The position numbers and the translations under genes were made by a program. DNA of 19,142 nucleotides from Candidatus Cryosericum sp. (GTDB lineage: Bacteria; Caldisericota; Caldisericia; Cryosericales; Cryosericaceae): assembly GCA_049699855.1 (NCBI GenBank), contig JBNAWM010000015.1, positions 1 through 19,142 of the forward strand. Reading direction: 5' to 3'. Under the pieces are notes generated by a model, which did not search any database, was not told where the DNA came from, and worked only from the letters and a program-made list of their open reading frames with translations. Positions 5,286 to 16,679 of the stretch are shown here, piece after piece. How positions within the stretch are numbered: the stretch's first letter is position 1; each line of letters opens with the position of its first letter.

Positions 5286-7319
5286 CTATCTCAGGAACAG
5301 CGGCAGGAAACTGAGCGAAATCACGGAGATGAGTTTGATGAGGATGTTAAGCGAAGGGCCTGCGGTATCTTTCAAGGGATCGCCGACGGTATCACCCACG
5401 ACGCTTGCCTGATGCTCCAAGCTGCCCTTGCCGCCGAGAGTCTTCTCGATCAGCTTCTTGGCGTTGTCCCATGCTCCCCCGGCATTGGCCATATAGAGGC
5501 CGAGCAGGGTACCGCTGACGGTTGCTCCCAGGAGGAGTCCCCCCACCGCTGCCTTTCCAAGGAGGAAGTACGTTACAAAAGGTGCGGCAATACCGATCAA
5601 GGCAGGTGGCACCATGTACTTCAGTGCGCCCTTGGTGCTGATGGCAATGCAAGCATTCGGATCTGAGGGAGCAAGTCCCTGCAAGAGACCCGGGATCTCA
5701 CGGAACTGACGTCGCACTTCCGTCACCATGAGCATTGCGGTTGAATCCACTGCCTCGATAAGAAGAGACGAGAACCAGAACGGCAGTGAAGCTCCCAGAA
5801 AGATGCCCGCAACCACACCGGGGTCCAGGATGTTGAGTACCGATAGATTGACAGCCTGTGCAAAACTGCTGAAGAGGGCCAGCGAGGTGAGAGCAGCTGA
5901 ACCGACTGCAAACCCCTTGCCCATCGCGGCCGTCGTGTTGCCCAGCGCGTCCAGCTGGTCCGTGCGCTCCCGGACAATGTCCGCCTGACCAGTCAGTTCT
6001 GCTATGCCCCCGGCATTGTCGGCAATGGGACCGTACGCGTCAACCGACAGAGAGATGCCAAGTGTCCCCAGCATGCCGACACCGGCCAGCGCAATGCCGT
6101 ACATGCCCAGACTGGCATAGGCTCCCAGCAGCGCTGCTGCAATAACAAAGACAGGAATGACCACGCTGCGCATGCCCGCCGACATACCGCTGAGTATGTT
6201 TGTAGCCGCTCCACTCTTGGACGCCAATGCAATCTGAGCGACTGGACGAGAGGACGTGAAGTACTCGGATGCAAGCCCGATCAAAACACCGGATCCAACG
6301 CCAATGGCAACGGCAATCGCACCCCGGAGACTTCCAAACATGCCTGTGGAAAGCGGCACCGAAAAGATCACCAAGCCAGTTGCAGCTCCTATGGAGCCAT
6401 ACCTCAACAAAGACTGCGGCGAAAAGCGGTCGATCCGCGACAGCAGCTTGACCGCCAGGACAGCCAGCAATGAAAGAGCAAGGCCCAGACCGGCCACATA
6501 GTAGACATATCGGATCCCCAGGAGGACATCGACCAGACCCTGCTGCCGCGCAAACCAGTAGCCCAGGATATCAGCTGCCAGGACTGCTCCCACATACGAT
6601 TCATAGAGGTCTGCACCCATTCCAGCGACGTCTCCCACGTTGTCTCCCACGTTGTCAGCAATGGATGCAGGATTCCGCGGGTCATCCTCTGGGATGCCTG
6701 CCTCCACCTTGCCAACGAGGTCCGCTCCGACATCTGCTGCCTTGGTGTAGATGCCACCGCCGACACGGGCAAACAGGGCAACGAGCGAAGCCCCCATGGA
6801 ATAGCCTGTCGCCGCGACCAGAGCCTTCTCGGGACTCTGCAGAAGGGCGAGAGTGACGAAGACAGACAGGAAGGACCCAAGCACGCCGAGGCTGGTGACG
6901 ACAATGCCCATCACCGATCCACCGGTAAAAGCCATGTTCAGGGCAGCTCCAAGCGAATGTCGGGCCGCAAGAGTGGTTCGCCCATTGGCCACGGTCGCGA
7001 TTCTCATCCCAATGTAGCCAGCAAGAACCGAGAACCCTGCCCCGGCAAGGAACGCACAGCCCGCTATGAACCCGTTGCCGAGTCCCAGCAGCACGCCGAC
7101 CACGACAAGAATGGGAAAGAGAATGGCATACTCGCGAGTCAGGAATGTGACCGCTCCCTCATGAATAGTGAGGGTGATTCGAAGAATGGCTTCATCTTCG
7201 AGGGGGTGTTTGATGATCGACCGCGCTAGAAAAGCAACAACCACAAGACCTACGACAGCAAGAATGGGGACAAGGATGAGAGGATATGAGCTACCTGCCT
7301 GCAGTGCACTCGTTGTCAC
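5286..7319 (-). CDS. hppA: Membrane-integral pyrophosphatase, K+-dependent, probably Na+-translocating
   Basis: GGGIYTKAADVGADLVGKVE, EDDPRNP, DNVGDNVGD, DAYGPIADNAGGIAE, GNTTAA, GGAWDNAKK, GDTVGDPLKDTAGPS. Likely GTG start at 7319 behind SD AGGGAGG (ORF track extends to 7364). Confidence 0.96.
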   Translation of the reverse strand: MTTSALQAGSSYPLILVPILAVVGLVVVAFLARSIIKHPLEDEAILRITLTIHEGAVTFLTREYAILFPILVVVGVLLGLGNGFIAGCAFLAGAGFSVLAGYIGMRIATVANGRTTLAARHSLGAALNMAFTGGSVMGIVVTSLGVLGSFLSVFVTLALLQSPEKALVAATGYSMGASLVALFARVGGGIYTKAADVGADLVGKVEAGIPEDDPRNPASIADNVGDNVGDVAGMGADLYESYVGAVLAADILGYWFARQQGLVDVLLGIRYVYYVAGLGLALSLLAVLAVKLLSRIDRFSPQSLLRYGSIGAATGLVIFSVPLSTGMFGSLRGAIAVAIGVGSGVLIGLASEYFTSSRPVAQIALASKSGAATNILSGMSAGMRSVVIPVFVIAAALLGAYASLGMYGIALAGVGMLGTLGISLSVDAYGPIADNAGGIAELTGQADIVRERTDQLDALGNTTAAMGKGFAVGSAALTSLALFSSFAQAVNLSVLNILDPGVVAGIFLGASLPFWFSSLLIEAVDSTAMLMVTEVRRQFREIPGLLQGLAPSDPNACIAISTKGALKYMVPPALIGIAAPFVTYFLLGKAAVGGLLLGATVSGTLLGLYMANAGGAWDNAKKLIEKTLGGKGSLEHQASVVGDTVGDPLKDTAGPSLNILIKLISVISLSFLPLFLR

Positions 7320-7368
7320 AAGACCCCTCCCTATTGGCCATCGCGTAGTGCGAACAAAAACCAAACAG

Positions 7369-7444
7369 TGGAGCCGGCGATCTGATTTGAACAGACGACC
7401 TGCTGATTACGGATCAGCTGCTCTACCAACTGAGCTACGCCGGC
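7369..7444 (-). tRNA. tRNA-Thr(CGT), atypical C33
   Basis: GCCGGCGTAGCTCAGTTGGTAGAGCA-GCTGA-TCCGTAA-TCAGC-AGGTC-GTCTG-TTCAAAT-CAGAT-CGCCGGC-TCCA; full cloverleaf, CCA encoded. Confidence 0.9.
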
Positions 7445-7479
7445 CAACAACTAGCCAAGTGGCCAGGACAAAACAAAAA

Positions 7480-7554
7480 TGGAGCGGAAGACGGGATTCG
7501 GACCCGCGACAACTGCCTTGGCAAGGCAGCGCTCTACCCCTGAGCTACTCCCGC
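7480..7554 (-). tRNA. tRNA-Gly(GCC), atypical C55
   Basis: GCGGGAG...CTGCC-TTGCCAA-GGCAG...GCGGG-TCCGAAT-CCCGT-CTTCCGC-TCCA. Confidence 0.95.
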
Positions 7555-7556
7555 TC

Positions 7557-7634
7557 TGGCGGGATCGACGGGATTTGAACCCGTGGTCTCCGGCGTGACA
7601 GGCCAGCGTGTTGGACCAGCTACACCACGACCCC
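7557..7634 (-). tRNA. tRNA-Asp(GTC)
   Basis: GGGGTCG...CTGGC-CTGTCAC-GCCGG...ACGGG-TTCAAAT-CCCGT-CGATCCC-GCCA. Confidence 0.96.
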
Positions 7635-7645
7635 GTACAACATTT

Positions 7646-7672
7646 AGTATAGATGATTCTGCAATAAGTCAA
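7646..7672 (-). promoter_or_regulatory. Putative promoter of the tRNA Asp-Gly-Thr(-hppA) transcript
   Basis: TTGACT-15 bp-TATACT, 11 bp upstream of tRNA-Asp; good hexamers but a short spacer. Confidence 0.55.
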
Positions 7673-7738
7673 GTGACCATCCAGTGTCTGGGTCGCACCA
7701 AACGCACACACCTGTCACGATGAGCACTTCAAAAAACC

Positions 7739-7813
7739 TGGTGGGCGGAACAGGGTTCGAACCTGCGACCCCCTCCGTGTGAGGGAGGTGCTCTACCGCT
7801 GAGCCATCCGCCC
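7739..7813 (-). tRNA. tRNA-Val(CAC)
   Basis: GGGCGGA...CCTCC-CTCACAC-GGAGG...GCAGG-TTCGAAC-CCTGT-TCCGCCC-ACCA. Confidence 0.96.
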
Positions 7814-7820
7814 GGAAAAA

Positions 7821-7895
7821 TGGTGCCCTCGAGGAGAATCGGACTCCTATCGCAGCCTTGAAAGGGCCGTGTCCTGACCATTAGACTACGAGGGC
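7821..7895 (-). tRNA. tRNA-Glu(TTC), atypical C55
   Basis: GCCCTCG...CGGCC-CTTTCAA-GGCTG...AGGAG-TCCGATT-CTCCT-CGAGGGC-ACCA. Confidence 0.95.
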
Positions 7896-7897
7896 AT

Positions 7898-7973
7898 TGG
7901 TGAGCCGTACAGGACTCGGACCTGTGACCCTCTGCTTAAAAGGCAGATGCTCTGCCAGCTGAGCTAACGGCCC
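7898..7973 (-). tRNA. tRNA-Lys(TTT), atypical C55
   Basis: GGGCCGT...TCTGC-CTTTTAA-GCAGA...ACAGG-TCCGAGT-CCTGT-ACGGCTC-ACCA. Confidence 0.95.
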
Positions 7974-7985
7974 GCGCACCAGTTC

Positions 7986-8013
7986 ATTCTATTGAAAACC
8001 GGCTGCTCGTCAA
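7986..8013 (-). promoter_or_regulatory. Promoter of the tRNA Lys-Glu-Val transcript
   Basis: TTGACG-16 bp-TAGAAT, 12 bp upstream of tRNA-Lys. Confidence 0.7.
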
Positions 8014-8037
8014 TACGCGTGCTTTCAGGAGGGCGCC

Positions 8038-9441
8038 TCAATCCTCCGAGGTGGTGTCGAGCGATTCGAATCGTGTGTATCGCTTGTCGAACATGAGCTT
8101 GACATTGCCCTGCTTCCCGTTGCGGTGCTTGGCAATCAGCGCGTTGGTGGGCGTGCGGGTATTGACCTCCGATGTGTCGATCGACTCATCGGTGTAGAGG
8201 AAGATGACAATGTCGGCATCCTGTTCGATAGCTCCGCTTTCGCGCAAGTCCGACAGCTGAGGCTTCTTGCGGTCACGTTTCTCGATATCCCGTGACAATT
8301 GTGATACAACAATCACGGGGACGTTCAGCTCACGCGCCAGGTTCTTGAGCATACGGGTAATCTGCGCCACCTCCAGTACCCGGCTCTCGACCTTCTCTCC
8401 TGAAGCAGCCAACTGAAGGTAGTCCACAATGAGAAGTTCAACCTTACCAGTGACGGCAAGCCGCTTGGCTTTAGCGCGGATCTCCAGTGCAGTCAGTCCT
8501 GCAGTGTCGTCAATGTACAGCGGTGCCTCGGAGAGTTTGTTGCTGATCTGGGTAAGTGCCTGCCAGTCTTCCTGGGACAGGTATCCCGAACGCAGTTTGT
8601 CCGCCTCGATCATGGCCTCAGAGGAAATGACCCTCTCGGCCAGCTGCTCGCGCGACATCTCCAAGCTGAAGATGCCTACGGGCTTCTTGAGCCGCACAGC
8701 ATTGTAGGCTGCGATGTTCAATGCCAGTGACGTCTTGCCCACGCTGGGGCGGGCTGCCAGAACAACAAGCTCCTGTGGTTGAAAGCCCCCGATCTGAAGG
8801 TCCATGTTTTTGATCCCCGTTCCGATCCCTCGAATGGACCCCCGGTGGTCGTAGCGGTCCTCAAGCAGCTGCAACGTCTTTGGAAGAATGTGCTCGAGTG
8901 ACTGAAAGTCTCCCCGGACCATGCCCTGGGATGCCTCGTAAACAAGCTTCTCTGTTCGATCGATCAGCTGCATTGCAGTAACCGCCGGCGAGAACCCCAG
9001 TTCGTAGATGTCCCTGCCTGCCCTGATGATACTGCGCTTCACTGAACACTCTTTGATGATTTCAGCGTAGTACTTGACGTTTTCGGTGGTTGGCACGAGC
9101 TCCGCGAGCTTCGCCAGATATGCCACCCCGCCAATGCGATCGAGATCCCCATGGCTCTTGATGTCATTACTCAGGACGACAATATCCACAGGCCTGTTGG
9201 AACTTCGCAGGCGGAAGATCGATTCGCAGATGGTGACATGCTCGTCAAAGTAAAAGTCGTCCGGTTTCAGAAAATCCATGACCTCGTCGACCGTGTTGTT
9301 GGAAACAATGAAGGAGCCAAGCAGCGACTGCTCGGCTCCCATATCGTACGGCGGAATGACGTTTCCGGCTGCAGGAGAAGACTCCCCTCTTCCGTCCTGA
9401 CGGCGGACCTCGGCTATCTGGCTTCCGGTATCGTCAGCCAT
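8038..9441 (-). CDS. dnaB: Replicative DNA helicase
   Basis: PPYDMGAEQSLLG N-domain, Walker A ARPSVGKT, FSLEMS, VDYLQL, SQLSR, DLRESGAIEQDAD, AKHRNG; normal length, no intein. Confidence 0.98.
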   Translation of the reverse strand: MADDTGSQIAEVRRQDGRGESSPAAGNVIPPYDMGAEQSLLGSFIVSNNTVDEVMDFLKPDDFYFDEHVTICESIFRLRSSNRPVDIVVLSNDIKSHGDLDRIGGVAYLAKLAELVPTTENVKYYAEIIKECSVKRSIIRAGRDIYELGFSPAVTAMQLIDRTEKLVYEASQGMVRGDFQSLEHILPKTLQLLEDRYDHRGSIRGIGTGIKNMDLQIGGFQPQELVVLAARPSVGKTSLALNIAAYNAVRLKKPVGIFSLEMSREQLAERVISSEAMIEADKLRSGYLSQEDWQALTQISNKLSEAPLYIDDTAGLTALEIRAKAKRLAVTGKVELLIVDYLQLAASGEKVESRVLEVAQITRMLKNLARELNVPVIVVSQLSRDIEKRDRKKPQLSDLRESGAIEQDADIVIFLYTDESIDTSEVNTRTPTNALIAKHRNGKQGNVKLMFDKRYTRFESLDTTSED

Positions 9442-14385: not shown

Positions 14386-15384
14386 TCAGGCTCCCCCTTC
14401 TTCGTCCATATCCTGTACCCAGCCGTGGAGCAGGCCTGATCGGGACCACTCCTCCATCACCTCGTCGAACTCAGCTTCGTTGATCTTCCGGTTGATTCCC
14501 AGAACAGGATCGAGCGCTCTGTATGCAGCAAAGTACTGCGTCATGACACTCACATAAGTCTCCGGTGAGAGTTGGCGGGCAACAAAACTGAACACGTCGC
14601 GTGCCATTCGCGCATAACCGGGCAGGATCAGGTATCGCACAATGATGCCATGCGGGATGTACCGCCCGCTCTGGTCCATCTTGATGTCGCCCACCTGGCT
14701 ATGCATTTCCACCAGGGCTGCTTTGGCATTGCGCACGTAGTCGCTGACTCCCGACAACCGCAGGCCCACCTGTTCATCGGTGTAGCGAAGGTCTGCCAGA
14801 TAGACATCGACGATCCCATCCAGCAGTTTGAGCGCTGACACCTCATCATAGCTGCTGGTGTTGTACACCAGCGGAATGTGCAGTCCCCCCTGGCGGGCAG
14901 CGTACACGGACGCAAGCACCTGGGGGACCTGGTGCGAAGGGGTGACAAGGTTGATGTTGTGGGCTCCCTTCCGCTGGAGTTCCAGAAAAGCCGATGCCAG
15001 CGAGCGCACCTCCATGTCGGTTCCGTGGTTCAGTTGACTCAAGGGATAGTTCTGGCAGTAGCTGCATCTCAGATTACAGCCACTGAAGAACACTGCACCC
15101 GATCCTCTTGTGCCACTGACAGGCGGTTCTTCGCCATGGTGCAAGTTCCACACGAACACTCTCGGCCTGATGCCTGCTCCGCAGGCTCCGACTTCTCCCG
15201 AGAGCCGGTCTGCCCCGCACCGCCGTGGACAGAGGTCACACGCGGAGAGTCGACGGTAGGCCGAGCGAATCCTGTCCCGAAAGTCGGCATCCGAGAGCGA
15301 GAGATACGACCCGTCGGTGTCGACCACCACGCCAGGCAGGTCCGACACAGAGTCCTCGGAGGCCAATGGCTCTAACGGGTCCAC
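14386..15384 (-). CDS. Radical SAM protein, PflX-like (COG1313), function unknown
   Basis: Auxiliary CDLCPRRC...GAC motif, HHGEEPPVSG..GSGAVFFSGCNLRCSYCQN (CX3CX2C), NINLVTPSH, PLVYNTSSY. The GTG start overlaps the trmFO 3' end. Confidence 0.88.
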   Translation of the reverse strand: MDPLEPLASEDSVSDLPGVVVDTDGSYLSLSDADFRDRIRSAYRRLSACDLCPRRCGADRLSGEVGACGAGIRPRVFVWNLHHGEEPPVSGTRGSGAVFFSGCNLRCSYCQNYPLSQLNHGTDMEVRSLASAFLELQRKGAHNINLVTPSHQVPQVLASVYAARQGGLHIPLVYNTSSYDEVSALKLLDGIVDVYLADLRYTDEQVGLRLSGVSDYVRNAKAALVEMHSQVGDIKMDQSGRYIPHGIIVRYLILPGYARMARDVFSFVARQLSPETYVSVMTQYFAAYRALDPVLGINRKINEAEFDEVMEEWSRSGLLHGWVQDMDEEGGA

Positions 15385-16679
15385 TTCTCGAGTCCTTCCG
15401 CGATACCTCCGATCTGCGCAAGAGCCTCGGCCGCAAAAGCCTCGCGATCGATACCCCTCTGCCTGGAACTGGGTTCCATCGGAAGGAGTCCATAGTTGGC
15501 ATTCGTCGGCTGAAAACTCTCCCGCTCCGTGACCACGTAGTCACTGAGAAGTCCCATCATCGTTCGAGTGGTGAAGAGTGGTCGTGAAATGCCGCGGAGA
15601 AGTGACGCCGCATTCAGCGCCGCAATCATTCCCATGGCAGTTGATTCCATATAACCGTCGACACCGCACAGCTGGCCGGCGATCCAGATTCCCGGGAAGG
15701 CCCTCAGCTGCAGGTCAGGCAGAAGAACTGAAGGACCCCGCAGAAACGCGTTCCTGTGGATGAGACCATAGCGGACAAAGGACGCATGCCGAAGCGCCGG
15801 CACCATGCCAAGCACTCTTTGCTGTTCACTGATCGCCAGCGAGGTCTGGAACCCGACGAGTCCAAGGACAGTTCCTGCACGATTCTCCTTGCGCAGTTGA
15901 ATCACAGCAAAACAATCTGCAGGGCGCTCTTTCAAACCAACGGGCCGCATCGGCCCAAATCGCAGAGCGTCGTCTCCCCGCCGTGCAATCTCCTCAACGG
16001 GCAGGCATGCCTCGAAGTACTGCTGTTCGCCGGGCGTCTCGGGCAAGTGCTGCCTCGCATGCTGGAGCTCGTGGACAAATGCATAGTACTCATCTCTCGT
16101 GAGTGGACAATTCACGTAATCCGCAGCATCACCGCCCCGAGAACTCAAAAACGACAGACTGCTGTCCACGGAATCTGCCCAGACAGAAGGAGCAATGGCG
16201 TCGTAGAAGAAGAGATTGTCCTCACCCAGACGGCTTCGAAGTTCTTCAAGCAAAACCGGGCTCGTCAGCGGTCCTGTAGCAATGATGGTCGGCATCGACG
16301 GGTCCAGGTGAGCATACTCCTCTCTGCGAATGGTGATGAGCGGCTCATTCTGGATGCGTTCAGTCACAAGAGAACTGAACTGCTCCTTGTCGACAGCAAA
16401 CGCTTTGCCCGCAGGGAGACGGCTCGCGTCGGCACATTCAACAACAGCCGACCGAAGAAGCCGCAGTTCTGCCTTGAGCAGTCCCCTCGCATCACGCAGG
16501 GCGTCTGATCCAAGGGAATTGCTGCAGACAAGTTCGCCAAACCGATCCGTCTCATGGATCCCAGTGGAGCGCATGGGGCGCATTTCCCACAGTTCCACAG
16601 AAAAACCAAGTCTCGAGAGTGTCAGGGCCGCTTCGCTGCCTGCGAGACCACCGCCTGCAACCCGGATTTCACTCGGCAT
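15372..16679 (-). CDS. trmFO: Folate/FAD-dependent tRNA m5U54 methyltransferase
   Basis: GGGLAGSEAA FAD motif, ELVCSNSLG and YFEACLPVE (both catalytic Cys), IIATGPLTS, FFYDAIAP, LRFGPMRPVGL, VGFQT, AGQLCGVDGY.ES. Confidence 0.95.
   Translation of the reverse strand: MPSEIRVAGGGLAGSEAALTLSRLGFSVELWEMRPMRSTGIHETDRFGELVCSNSLGSDALRDARGLLKAELRLLRSAVVECADASRLPAGKAFAVDKEQFSSLVTERIQNEPLITIRREEYAHLDPSMPTIIATGPLTSPVLLEELRSRLGEDNLFFYDAIAPSVWADSVDSSLSFLSSRGGDAADYVNCPLTRDEYYAFVHELQHARQHLPETPGEQQYFEACLPVEEIARRGDDALRFGPMRPVGLKERPADCFAVIQLRKENRAGTVLGLVGFQTSLAISEQQRVLGMVPALRHASFVRYGLIHRNAFLRGPSVLLPDLQLRAFPGIWIAGQLCGVDGYMESTAMGMIAALNAASLLRGISRPLFTTRTMMGLLSDYVVTERESFQPTNANYGLLPMEPSSRQRGIDREAFAAEALAQIGGIAEGLEKWTR

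Follow-up and report, generated by a model that had tools for sequence, protein, structure and literature searches.

Gene-encoded C33 in the tRNA-Thr(CGU) of Candidatus Cryosericum, an inherited and recurrent exception to U33 in prokaryotic tRNAs

Introduction

How can a bacterial threonine tRNA carry a cytidine at position 33 of its anticodon loop, where a uridine is expected? U33 is called near-invariant in elongator tRNAs, and the exceptions named in the accessible text of PMC5041475 are eukaryotic only. In the canonical loop its 2'-OH contacts R35, its O2 contacts Y36 and its N3 contacts the phosphate of residue 36 (PMC5041475). The question is raised by an array of tRNA genes in the window, by which the whole analysed stretch of 19,142 nucleotides is meant (contig JBNAWM010000015.1 of a Candidatus Cryosericum assembly). 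A first-pass annotation of this DNA had placed C33 beside three T-loops with C55, all in a UCCG context, and had proposed a single loop-recognising deaminase that restores both kinds of uridine or, alternatively, a dispensable ACG decoder with altered properties.

The tRNA array and its threonine tRNA

The features under consideration are the following.

7369..7444, minus strand: tRNA-Thr(CGU), last gene of the six-tRNA array, predicted by ARAGORN, CCA encoded
7402..7418, minus strand: anticodon arm of tRNA-Thr(CGU), 5-bp stem and loop U32-C33-C34-G35-U36-A37-A38
7412, minus strand: C33 replacing U33 in tRNA-Thr(CGU), the sole non-U33 among the 45 tRNAs of the genome
7480..7554, minus strand: tRNA-Gly(GCC), C55 at 7501 in a UCCG T-loop, a phenomenon separate from C33
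7557..7634, minus strand: tRNA-Asp(GUC), U55 in a UUCA T-loop
7739..7813, minus strand: tRNA-Val(CAC), UUCG T-loop retaining U55, a counter-example within the array
7821..7895, minus strand: tRNA-Glu(UUC), C55 at 7842 in a UCCG T-loop
7898..7973, minus strand: tRNA-Lys(UUU), C55 at 7919 in a UCCG T-loop, first gene of the array
7986..8013, minus strand: sigma-70-like promoter match (10/12) directly upstream of the array, a consensus match only

The genes are arranged on the minus strand in the order Lys-Glu-Val-Asp-Gly-Thr, between a dnaB-like gene and a membrane-pyrophosphatase-like gene (names read from the translations). A second promoter-like site, TTGACT and TATACT with a 15-base spacer, was read by eye at 7646-7672 on the minus strand, just upstream of tRNA-Asp, and lies outside the list of the promoter scan, which allowed spacers of 16-18; it could transcribe Asp-Gly-Thr separately. 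The window also encodes TrmFO, the m5U54 methyltransferase, at 15372-16679 on the minus strand, with scores above the family cut-offs.

Apart from position 33, tRNA-Thr(CGU) has the build of an ordinary tRNA. It matches Rfam RF00005 with 65.7 bits and has a normal cloverleaf (folding, MFE z=-4.2), a 7-nt anticodon loop, a CGU anticodon and a CCA end; among these sequence features of the family, it departs only from the near-invariant U33. The gene is present in one copy, as blastn of the genome returned one full-length match. Rereading of the anticodon arm agreed with the first-pass annotation: GCTGA-TCCGTAA-TCAGC occupies 7418-7402, with U32 at 7413, C33 at 7412 and the anticodon at 7411-7409. 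When window positions 7300-8050 were compared with four sequencing runs, three from RNA libraries and one probably from DNA, the aligned contigs all came from related species. RNA-library contigs of these relatives, in which DNA carry-over is possible, span the array; 7412 is not among the 40 of 75 rows listed, and one 78-base RNA contig has a single difference to the window.

Inheritance of C33 in the genus and the phylum

C33 is real and inherited, not an assembly error. It is shared by 16 of the 19 genus genomes having a Thr(CGU) match and by 22 of 22 metagenome contigs, which were collected with a search pattern that permitted C or T at position 33, and it is thus not private to this assembly. 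Fourteen genus orthologues were compared. Twelve are identical to the window gene while the spacers diverge between the genomes; one of the other two differs at position 33 only and the second at position 33 and five T-arm positions. The alleles of this genome and of G021 differ at position 33 only. An N-gap accounts for the seeming absence of the gene from G003. The gene is therefore a natural C33 tRNA in the sense that C33 is encoded and lineage-conserved within an otherwise conserved gene. A Thr(CGU) gene with a different anticodon stem (C32-U33) was seen in one genus member (G022:C271:1174-1213); it matches two genomes of family f3 and lies on a 2.3-kb contig, so that contamination or transfer is possible.

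A survey of 93 genomes of the phylum gave a Thr(CGU) match in 82, with C33 in 22 and U33 in 60. By genus, C33 was found in 16/19 (g1), 5/5 (g9) and 1/2 (g16), and all these C33 genes have U32-C33 (UCCG). In a tree of 43 HppA sequences, g9 and g16 are joined (support 92) and U33 lineages stand between them and g1, which indicates that C33 arose at least twice in the phylum; this was a quick single-gene tree with no bootstrap, and G006, G022, G002 and G010 were left out. The near-fixation of C33 in the genus exceeds what free toggling would suggest.

Recurrence and isoacceptor bias across prokaryotes

A scan of GTDB for C33 in Thr(CGU) returned at least 119 loci, at least 100 of them real tRNAs as judged by stem and T-loop. 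The 100 real genes listed have anticodon loops beginning with CCCG (63) or UCCG (37), and 96 have a normal T-loop. The 80 titled matches listed include Bacilli, Clostridia, Bacteroidales, Campylobacterota, Patescibacteria, Proteobacteria and archaea, with cultured strains of Sulfurospirillum, Tolumonas and Iodobacter among the carriers. C33 is nevertheless not common everywhere in Thr(CGU), a notion ruled out by three unbiased samples. Among 400 genomes from the phylum of a Clostridia record, one narrow pattern found C33 in six tRNAs, none of them Thr(CGU); beyond the search-centre genomes, no Thr(CGU) with C33 turned up among 200 genomes of Patescibacteria or among 150 of an archaeal phylum. 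The occurrence of C33 in Thr(CGU) of the genus is thus far above background.

Where U33 is replaced, the same tRNAs recur. Thr(CGU) accounts for 24 of the 33 non-U33 rows in Caldisericota, the others being Pro(GGG) three times, Pro(CGG), Arg(UCG), Thr(UGU) and three doubtful rows. The Pro(GGG) genes belong to three genomes of family f7 (G492:C135:8224-8264, G496:C83:8465-8505 and G497:C82:12090-12130) and the Pro(CGG) gene, with a UCCG anticodon loop, to one genome of f3 (G464:C6:8348-8388). In one Bacilli order, selected because it contained a C33 match, 21 of 39 Thr(CGU) genes carry C33 and are interspersed with U33 relatives; Thr(CGU) makes up 21 of the 26 non-U33 rows of this survey, and was matched in 38 of 106 genomes. 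The phylum of Sulfurospirillum (Campylobacterota) gave 13 non-U33 rows: seven Val(GAC), five Thr(CGU), two of which are in the centre genome, and one that is not a tRNA. Val(GAC) supplied 12 of 24 non-U33 rows in Patescibacteria, and with C33 it is the commonest non-U33 tRNA in the Patescibacteria and Campylobacterota samples (for example L198, G044:C50:22456-22495).

C33 is thus rare overall, and its occurrences gather in the isoacceptors Thr(CGU) and Val(GAC) as far as the survey patterns reach, which cover 14 to 17 of the 45 tRNAs of this genome; long-arm tRNAs and several others are outside. Both anticodons are of the type R35-Y36. This enrichment is weak evidence, since 11 of the 17 pattern-covered tRNAs of this genome are already R35-Y36. 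Other tRNAs of this type, Ala(CGC), Val(CAC), Ala(UGC), Thr(GGU) and Thr(UGU), appear in only one to three rows per search.

Position 33 varies together with its neighbours. The Val(GAC) genes of Patescibacteria with C33 have U32 and C38 in 12 of 12 cases, and C38 occurs in none of the 19 listed with U33 (150 of 313 rows were listed). Among viral Thr(CGU) genes, C32 accompanies C33 in 9/12 vs U33 in 33/120. In the Bacilli order the association between 32 and 33 has the same direction as in the viral genes and is not significant (19/30 vs 2/8, p=0.11). The genomes behind these counts are not independent of one another. Variation of 32 and 38 with 33 suggests that C33 persists in the finished RNA and is seen there by selection.

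C33, C55 and the UCCG context

The three C55 T-loops of the array, in Gly(GCC), Glu(UUC) and Lys(UUU), are real and all read UCCG, and the T-loops of Thr and Asp read UUCA, as the first-pass annotation had it. The context rule implied there did not hold: the Val(CAC) gene of the same array, which it omitted, has a UUCG T-loop with U55. The T-loops of the 45 tRNAs of the genome are TTCG (20), TTCA (19), TCCG (5) and TCCA (1), so that C55 occurs in six tRNAs, five with UCCG and one with UCCA. The expectation that C33 and C55 occur only before CG is contradicted by this UCCA loop, and C55 before CG (5/25) vs before CA (1/20) gives no significant bias (Fisher p=0.20). The anticodon loop of tRNA-Pro(CGG), U32-U33-C-G, also retains its U. 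A shared UCCG context of edited sites was therefore rejected on the basis of UUCG loops that keep U, a C55 loop with UCCA and C33 genes with CCCG. Avoidance of words at the DNA level was tried as well and gave no signal (observed/expected TTCG 0.84, TCGA 1.13, TTCGAA 1.00, TCCG 0.81).

Across species the two substitutions segregate apart and are separate phenomena. G021 and G006 have C55 in other tRNAs of the array, yet U33 in Thr(CGU); G032, of genus g9, has C33 with U55 in all six T-loops of its array; and six genomes of family f4 have a Thr(CGU) with C55 and U33. With no significant context bias, C33 and C55 uncoupled and CCCG common elsewhere, the proposal of one deaminase acting on UCCG at both positions is not borne out.

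C55 is a relaxation separate from C33 and may be related to a variant of TruB. In 13 of 13 genus genomes examined, TruB has Phe for the His of the GHxGxLD motif and keeps the catalytic Asp (L055:1078-2040, on G000:C38; L057-L064; L069-L072), and most relatives have His. The genus proteins score 110-124 bits against the TruB family vs 136-181 in other class members, that of this genome falling just below the family cut-off, and two f4 genomes have Tyr at the motif position. His43 of TruB is described as stacking under U54:A58 (PMC12710931). The putative link is loose, since two TruB sequences from f4 genera with C55 retain His.

Editing enzymes, decoding genes and codon use

A profile search of the genome, whose assembly is 97.9% complete, found a single gene with the CDA fold. 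It encodes a TadA-like protein of 169 aa (145.2 bits vs a cut-off of 150) and lies between tRNA-Ser(CGA) and tRNA-Arg(ACG), its expected substrate (L056, G000:C9:8116-8748). The genome contains tRNA-Leu(AAG) (G000:C14:19080-19164) and, among its 45 tRNAs, no Leu(GAG), which suggests that inosine formation by the TadA-like enzyme may extend to a leucine tRNA. A single PF00383 match is present in 19 of 23 genus genomes, most other members of the class having at least two, and, from these sequence matches, ordinary genes for a cytidine or dCMP deaminase seem to be missing from the genus. An editor of the CDAT8 type was sought through THUMP and PF08211, and neither has a match in the genome. No fusion of the TrcP type (deaminase, helical domains and RluA-type synthase) was found; the single PF00849 gene encodes 236 aa vs about 570. 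One gene of the TruA family is present (at most 274 aa).

The genome carries the t6A genes TsaD, a second TsaD-family gene and Sua5/TsaC. For the enzymes of xo5U34, no match to the TrhP or TrhO families was found in the genome, and a weak CmoB-family match is a generic methyltransferase. As cmo5U helps to read G-ending codons (PMC4737166), the genome probably leans on Thr(CGU) for ACG. This codon is not avoided: 1,330 predicted genes contain 27,471 Thr codons, and 35.6% of them are ACG; the underlying gene prediction recovered 19 of the 20 window genes that were used as its training set. No clear shift in ACG use accompanies C33 in eight genomes, seven of which were sampled in part: the G-ending share of Thr minus the mean of Ala, Pro and Ser was +0.08, +0.03, -0.01 and +0.14 in U33 genomes and -0.02, +0.03, -0.05 and +0.05 in C33 genomes. 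The alternative of a dispensable ACG decoder with altered properties is thus accepted in part. A decoder with altered properties comes close to the reading preferred below; that it should be dispensable is doubtful, given the frequency of ACG, a gene conserved letter for letter and the lack of xo5U34 enzyme matches.

Explanations for C33

Starting from the observed sequence, inheritance, recurrence, isoacceptor bias and uncoupling from C55, we infer that C33 goes unedited and that charging and decoding are normal. On sequence evidence, the odds lean slightly towards a gene-encoded C33 that is kept as C in the mature tRNA, with the tRNA working as an ACG reader whose U-turn tolerates C. Position 33 of Thr(CGU) and Val(GAC) would then be a permitted pyrimidine, drifting or weakly selected, in a Thr(CGU) gene whose remainder appears to be under strong purifying selection. 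C33 could keep the contacts of the U33 ribose 2'-OH and O2 to R35 and Y36, and the lost bond between N3-H and phosphate might be restored by a protonated C, as in a riboswitch U-turn in which protonated C substitutes for U (PMC6061696). Any loss of affinity, possibly including that from reduced t6A37, may be absorbed by the two codon pairs that are G-C and by a second isoacceptor. E. coli TsaBCDE failed to form t6A37 on an initiator tRNA with U33C (PMC8887486), so that C33 is possibly not neutral in a tRNA that reads ANN codons. The natural C33 of yeast tRNA-Leu(GAG) has a minimal functional effect (bioRxiv 10.64898/2026.02.20.707122). The prominence of Thr(CGU) and Val(GAC) is not explained by tolerance alone, and no reading accounts for the preference for these two over equally redundant R35-Y36 neighbours.

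The main rival also leaves C33 unedited and takes it as positively selected, serving Thr(CGU) and Val(GAC) as an anti-determinant or as a means of detuning; we consider this rival possible, if rather unlikely. C33 might weaken A-site binding, perhaps by preventing t6A37, and so cut misreading of AUG through G35.U; it might reduce mischarging of Thr(CGU), a look-alike of CAU, by methionyl-tRNA synthetase; or it might prevent collapse of the loop through a U33-A37 pair. Repeated origin in the same two isoacceptors speaks for such a role, as does the covariation of 33 with 32 and 38, positions described as tuning ribosome binding (PMC11231383, PMC5041475). In E. coli, tRNA-Thr(CGU) is mischarged with methionine by MetRS, and U33 counts among the minor identity elements for Met (PMC9976931); this argument does not extend to Val(GAC). 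The block of E. coli t6A synthesis by C33 (PMC8887486) is relevant to a genome with its own TsaD, second TsaD-family and Sua5/TsaC genes, and folding predicts a 33-37 pairing probability of 0.67 with the natural U33 allele and 0 with C33. Yet U33 is still the rule in the phylum (60/82), the samples of 400, 200 and 150 genomes are empty beyond their search centres, and C33 and U33 are interspersed among close relatives. Nor does selection sit easily with ACG use, which shows no clear shift in the eight genomes (seven partial), or with four other tRNAs of the genome that have U32, A37 and A38 and keep U33. Editing of C33 to U, with or without C55, by the TadA-like protein or by a deaminase invisible to sequence search is improbable. 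If true, it would be editing at the U-turn position and might act as a regulated switch that governs t6A37 and the reading of ACG; the full-text literature search found no description of editing at the anticodon U-turn position in bacteria. In its favour, C33 and several C55 co-occur in the genus, every Thr C33 of the phylum lies in UCCG, and one further UCCG anticodon loop exists in Pro(CGG) of G464. The deaminase domain of TrcP was recognised by structure only, trypanosome ADAT2/3 edits C to U in tRNAs (PMC9553926), and an editor gene could be missing from an assembly that is 97.9% complete. However, C33 affects just one of 45 tRNAs, context bias is lacking, and C33 and C55 uncouple; C33 is scattered over many phyla and mixed with U33 among kin, which would demand the enzyme in all of them; if the C were erased, position 33 would not be expected to covary with 38 and 32; and the gene content offers one TadA-like CDA-fold protein of 169 aa, no THUMP domain and an RluA-type protein of 236 aa where about 570 would be needed for TrcP.

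Escape from parasites, in which C33 would hide the loop from an anticodon nuclease or spoil the overlap of an integrase with the anticodon loop, is comparably doubtful. Integrases cross over in the anticodon loop, Thr(CGU) genes on viral contigs are often near the contig ends, as attachment sites would be, and C33 is patchy among kin in the Bacilli order. Against this, 4 of 12 viral genes with C33 likewise lie no more than about 500 bases from the end of their contig, no viral contig with the 3' half of this tRNA was found, and no nuclease was identified. The genome holds no second copy or convincing fragment, a 16-base match (contig C133) lying inside a gene, and apparent Thr(CGU) duplicates in relatives are at contig ends or gaps. 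Least credible is a decaying or non-functional copy, or an assembly error at 7412. In the Bacilli order Thr(CGU) was matched in just 38 genomes out of 106, so that the gene may be dispensable in some lineages; here, 12 of 14 genus orthologues are identical amid diverging spacers, all 22 metagenome contigs have C, and a single copy stands in an array with a promoter-like site in a genome where ACG is common.

Comparison with known systems

The nearest likeness to the preferred reading, an unedited and working C33 tRNA, is yeast tRNA-Leu(GAG), a single-copy elongator of a four-codon box with gene-encoded C33, in which C33U mattered little (bioRxiv 10.64898/2026.02.20.707122). It differs in being eukaryotic, non-essential and no ANN reader, and the prokaryotic C33 recurs in Thr(CGU) and Val(GAC). 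C33 is also natural in the initiator tRNA-Met of multicellular eukaryotes and in tRNA-Cys(GCA) of Sulfolobales (PMC8887486, PMC5041475, PMC7668247). In both it is gene-encoded and lineage-fixed, as here, and the initiator shares the R35-Y36 anticodon and the same question of t6A37; in contrast to both, this Thr(CGU) belongs to a bacterium and serves elongation, and C33 is not accepted by the t6A machinery of E. coli. The neomycin riboswitch keeps its fold after a U-to-C change at the U-turn via N3 protonation (PMC6061696). That is an engineered variant, comparable to the anticodon loop by analogy only.

CDAT8 is a cytidine deaminase fused to THUMP and restores U8 in most Methanopyrus tRNAs. 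All 45 tRNAs of this genome have T8, and no THUMP domain was found in it. Like CDAT8, TrcP of Vibrio cholerae (C32 to pseudouridine) and ADAT2/3 act on a gene-encoded C where a uridine-type base could be needed (PMC9553926). TrcP acts at 32, not 33, and no CDA-RluA fusion of 570 aa was found here. Gene-encoded bacterial C55 has a parallel in tRNA-Gly of Lactiplantibacillus plantarum, in which C55U left glycylation unchanged (PMC10464925); it concerns the T-loop only, and is a precedent for the C55 of the window and not for C33.

A full-text search, in which Val(GAC) was not named and which left most subscription papers and supplements outside, found no paper that treats C33 in the Thr(CGU) or Val(GAC) of bacteria, and the accessible text of PMC11464382 has no passage on position 33; supplementary tRNA tables could list these C33 genes already. 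At present the finding does not point to a new editing enzyme, and the proposed UCCG deaminase is unlikely.

Implications

The tRNA-Thr(CGU) of this bacterium is part of a recurrent prokaryotic exception to U33 that is near-fixed in its whole genus. The natural pairs of alleles that differ at position 33 only, such as those of this genome and G021, offer a clean test of the role of U33. Such C33/U33 pairs also bear on the acceptance of C33 by t6A enzymes and on the tuning of anticodon loops in bacteria.
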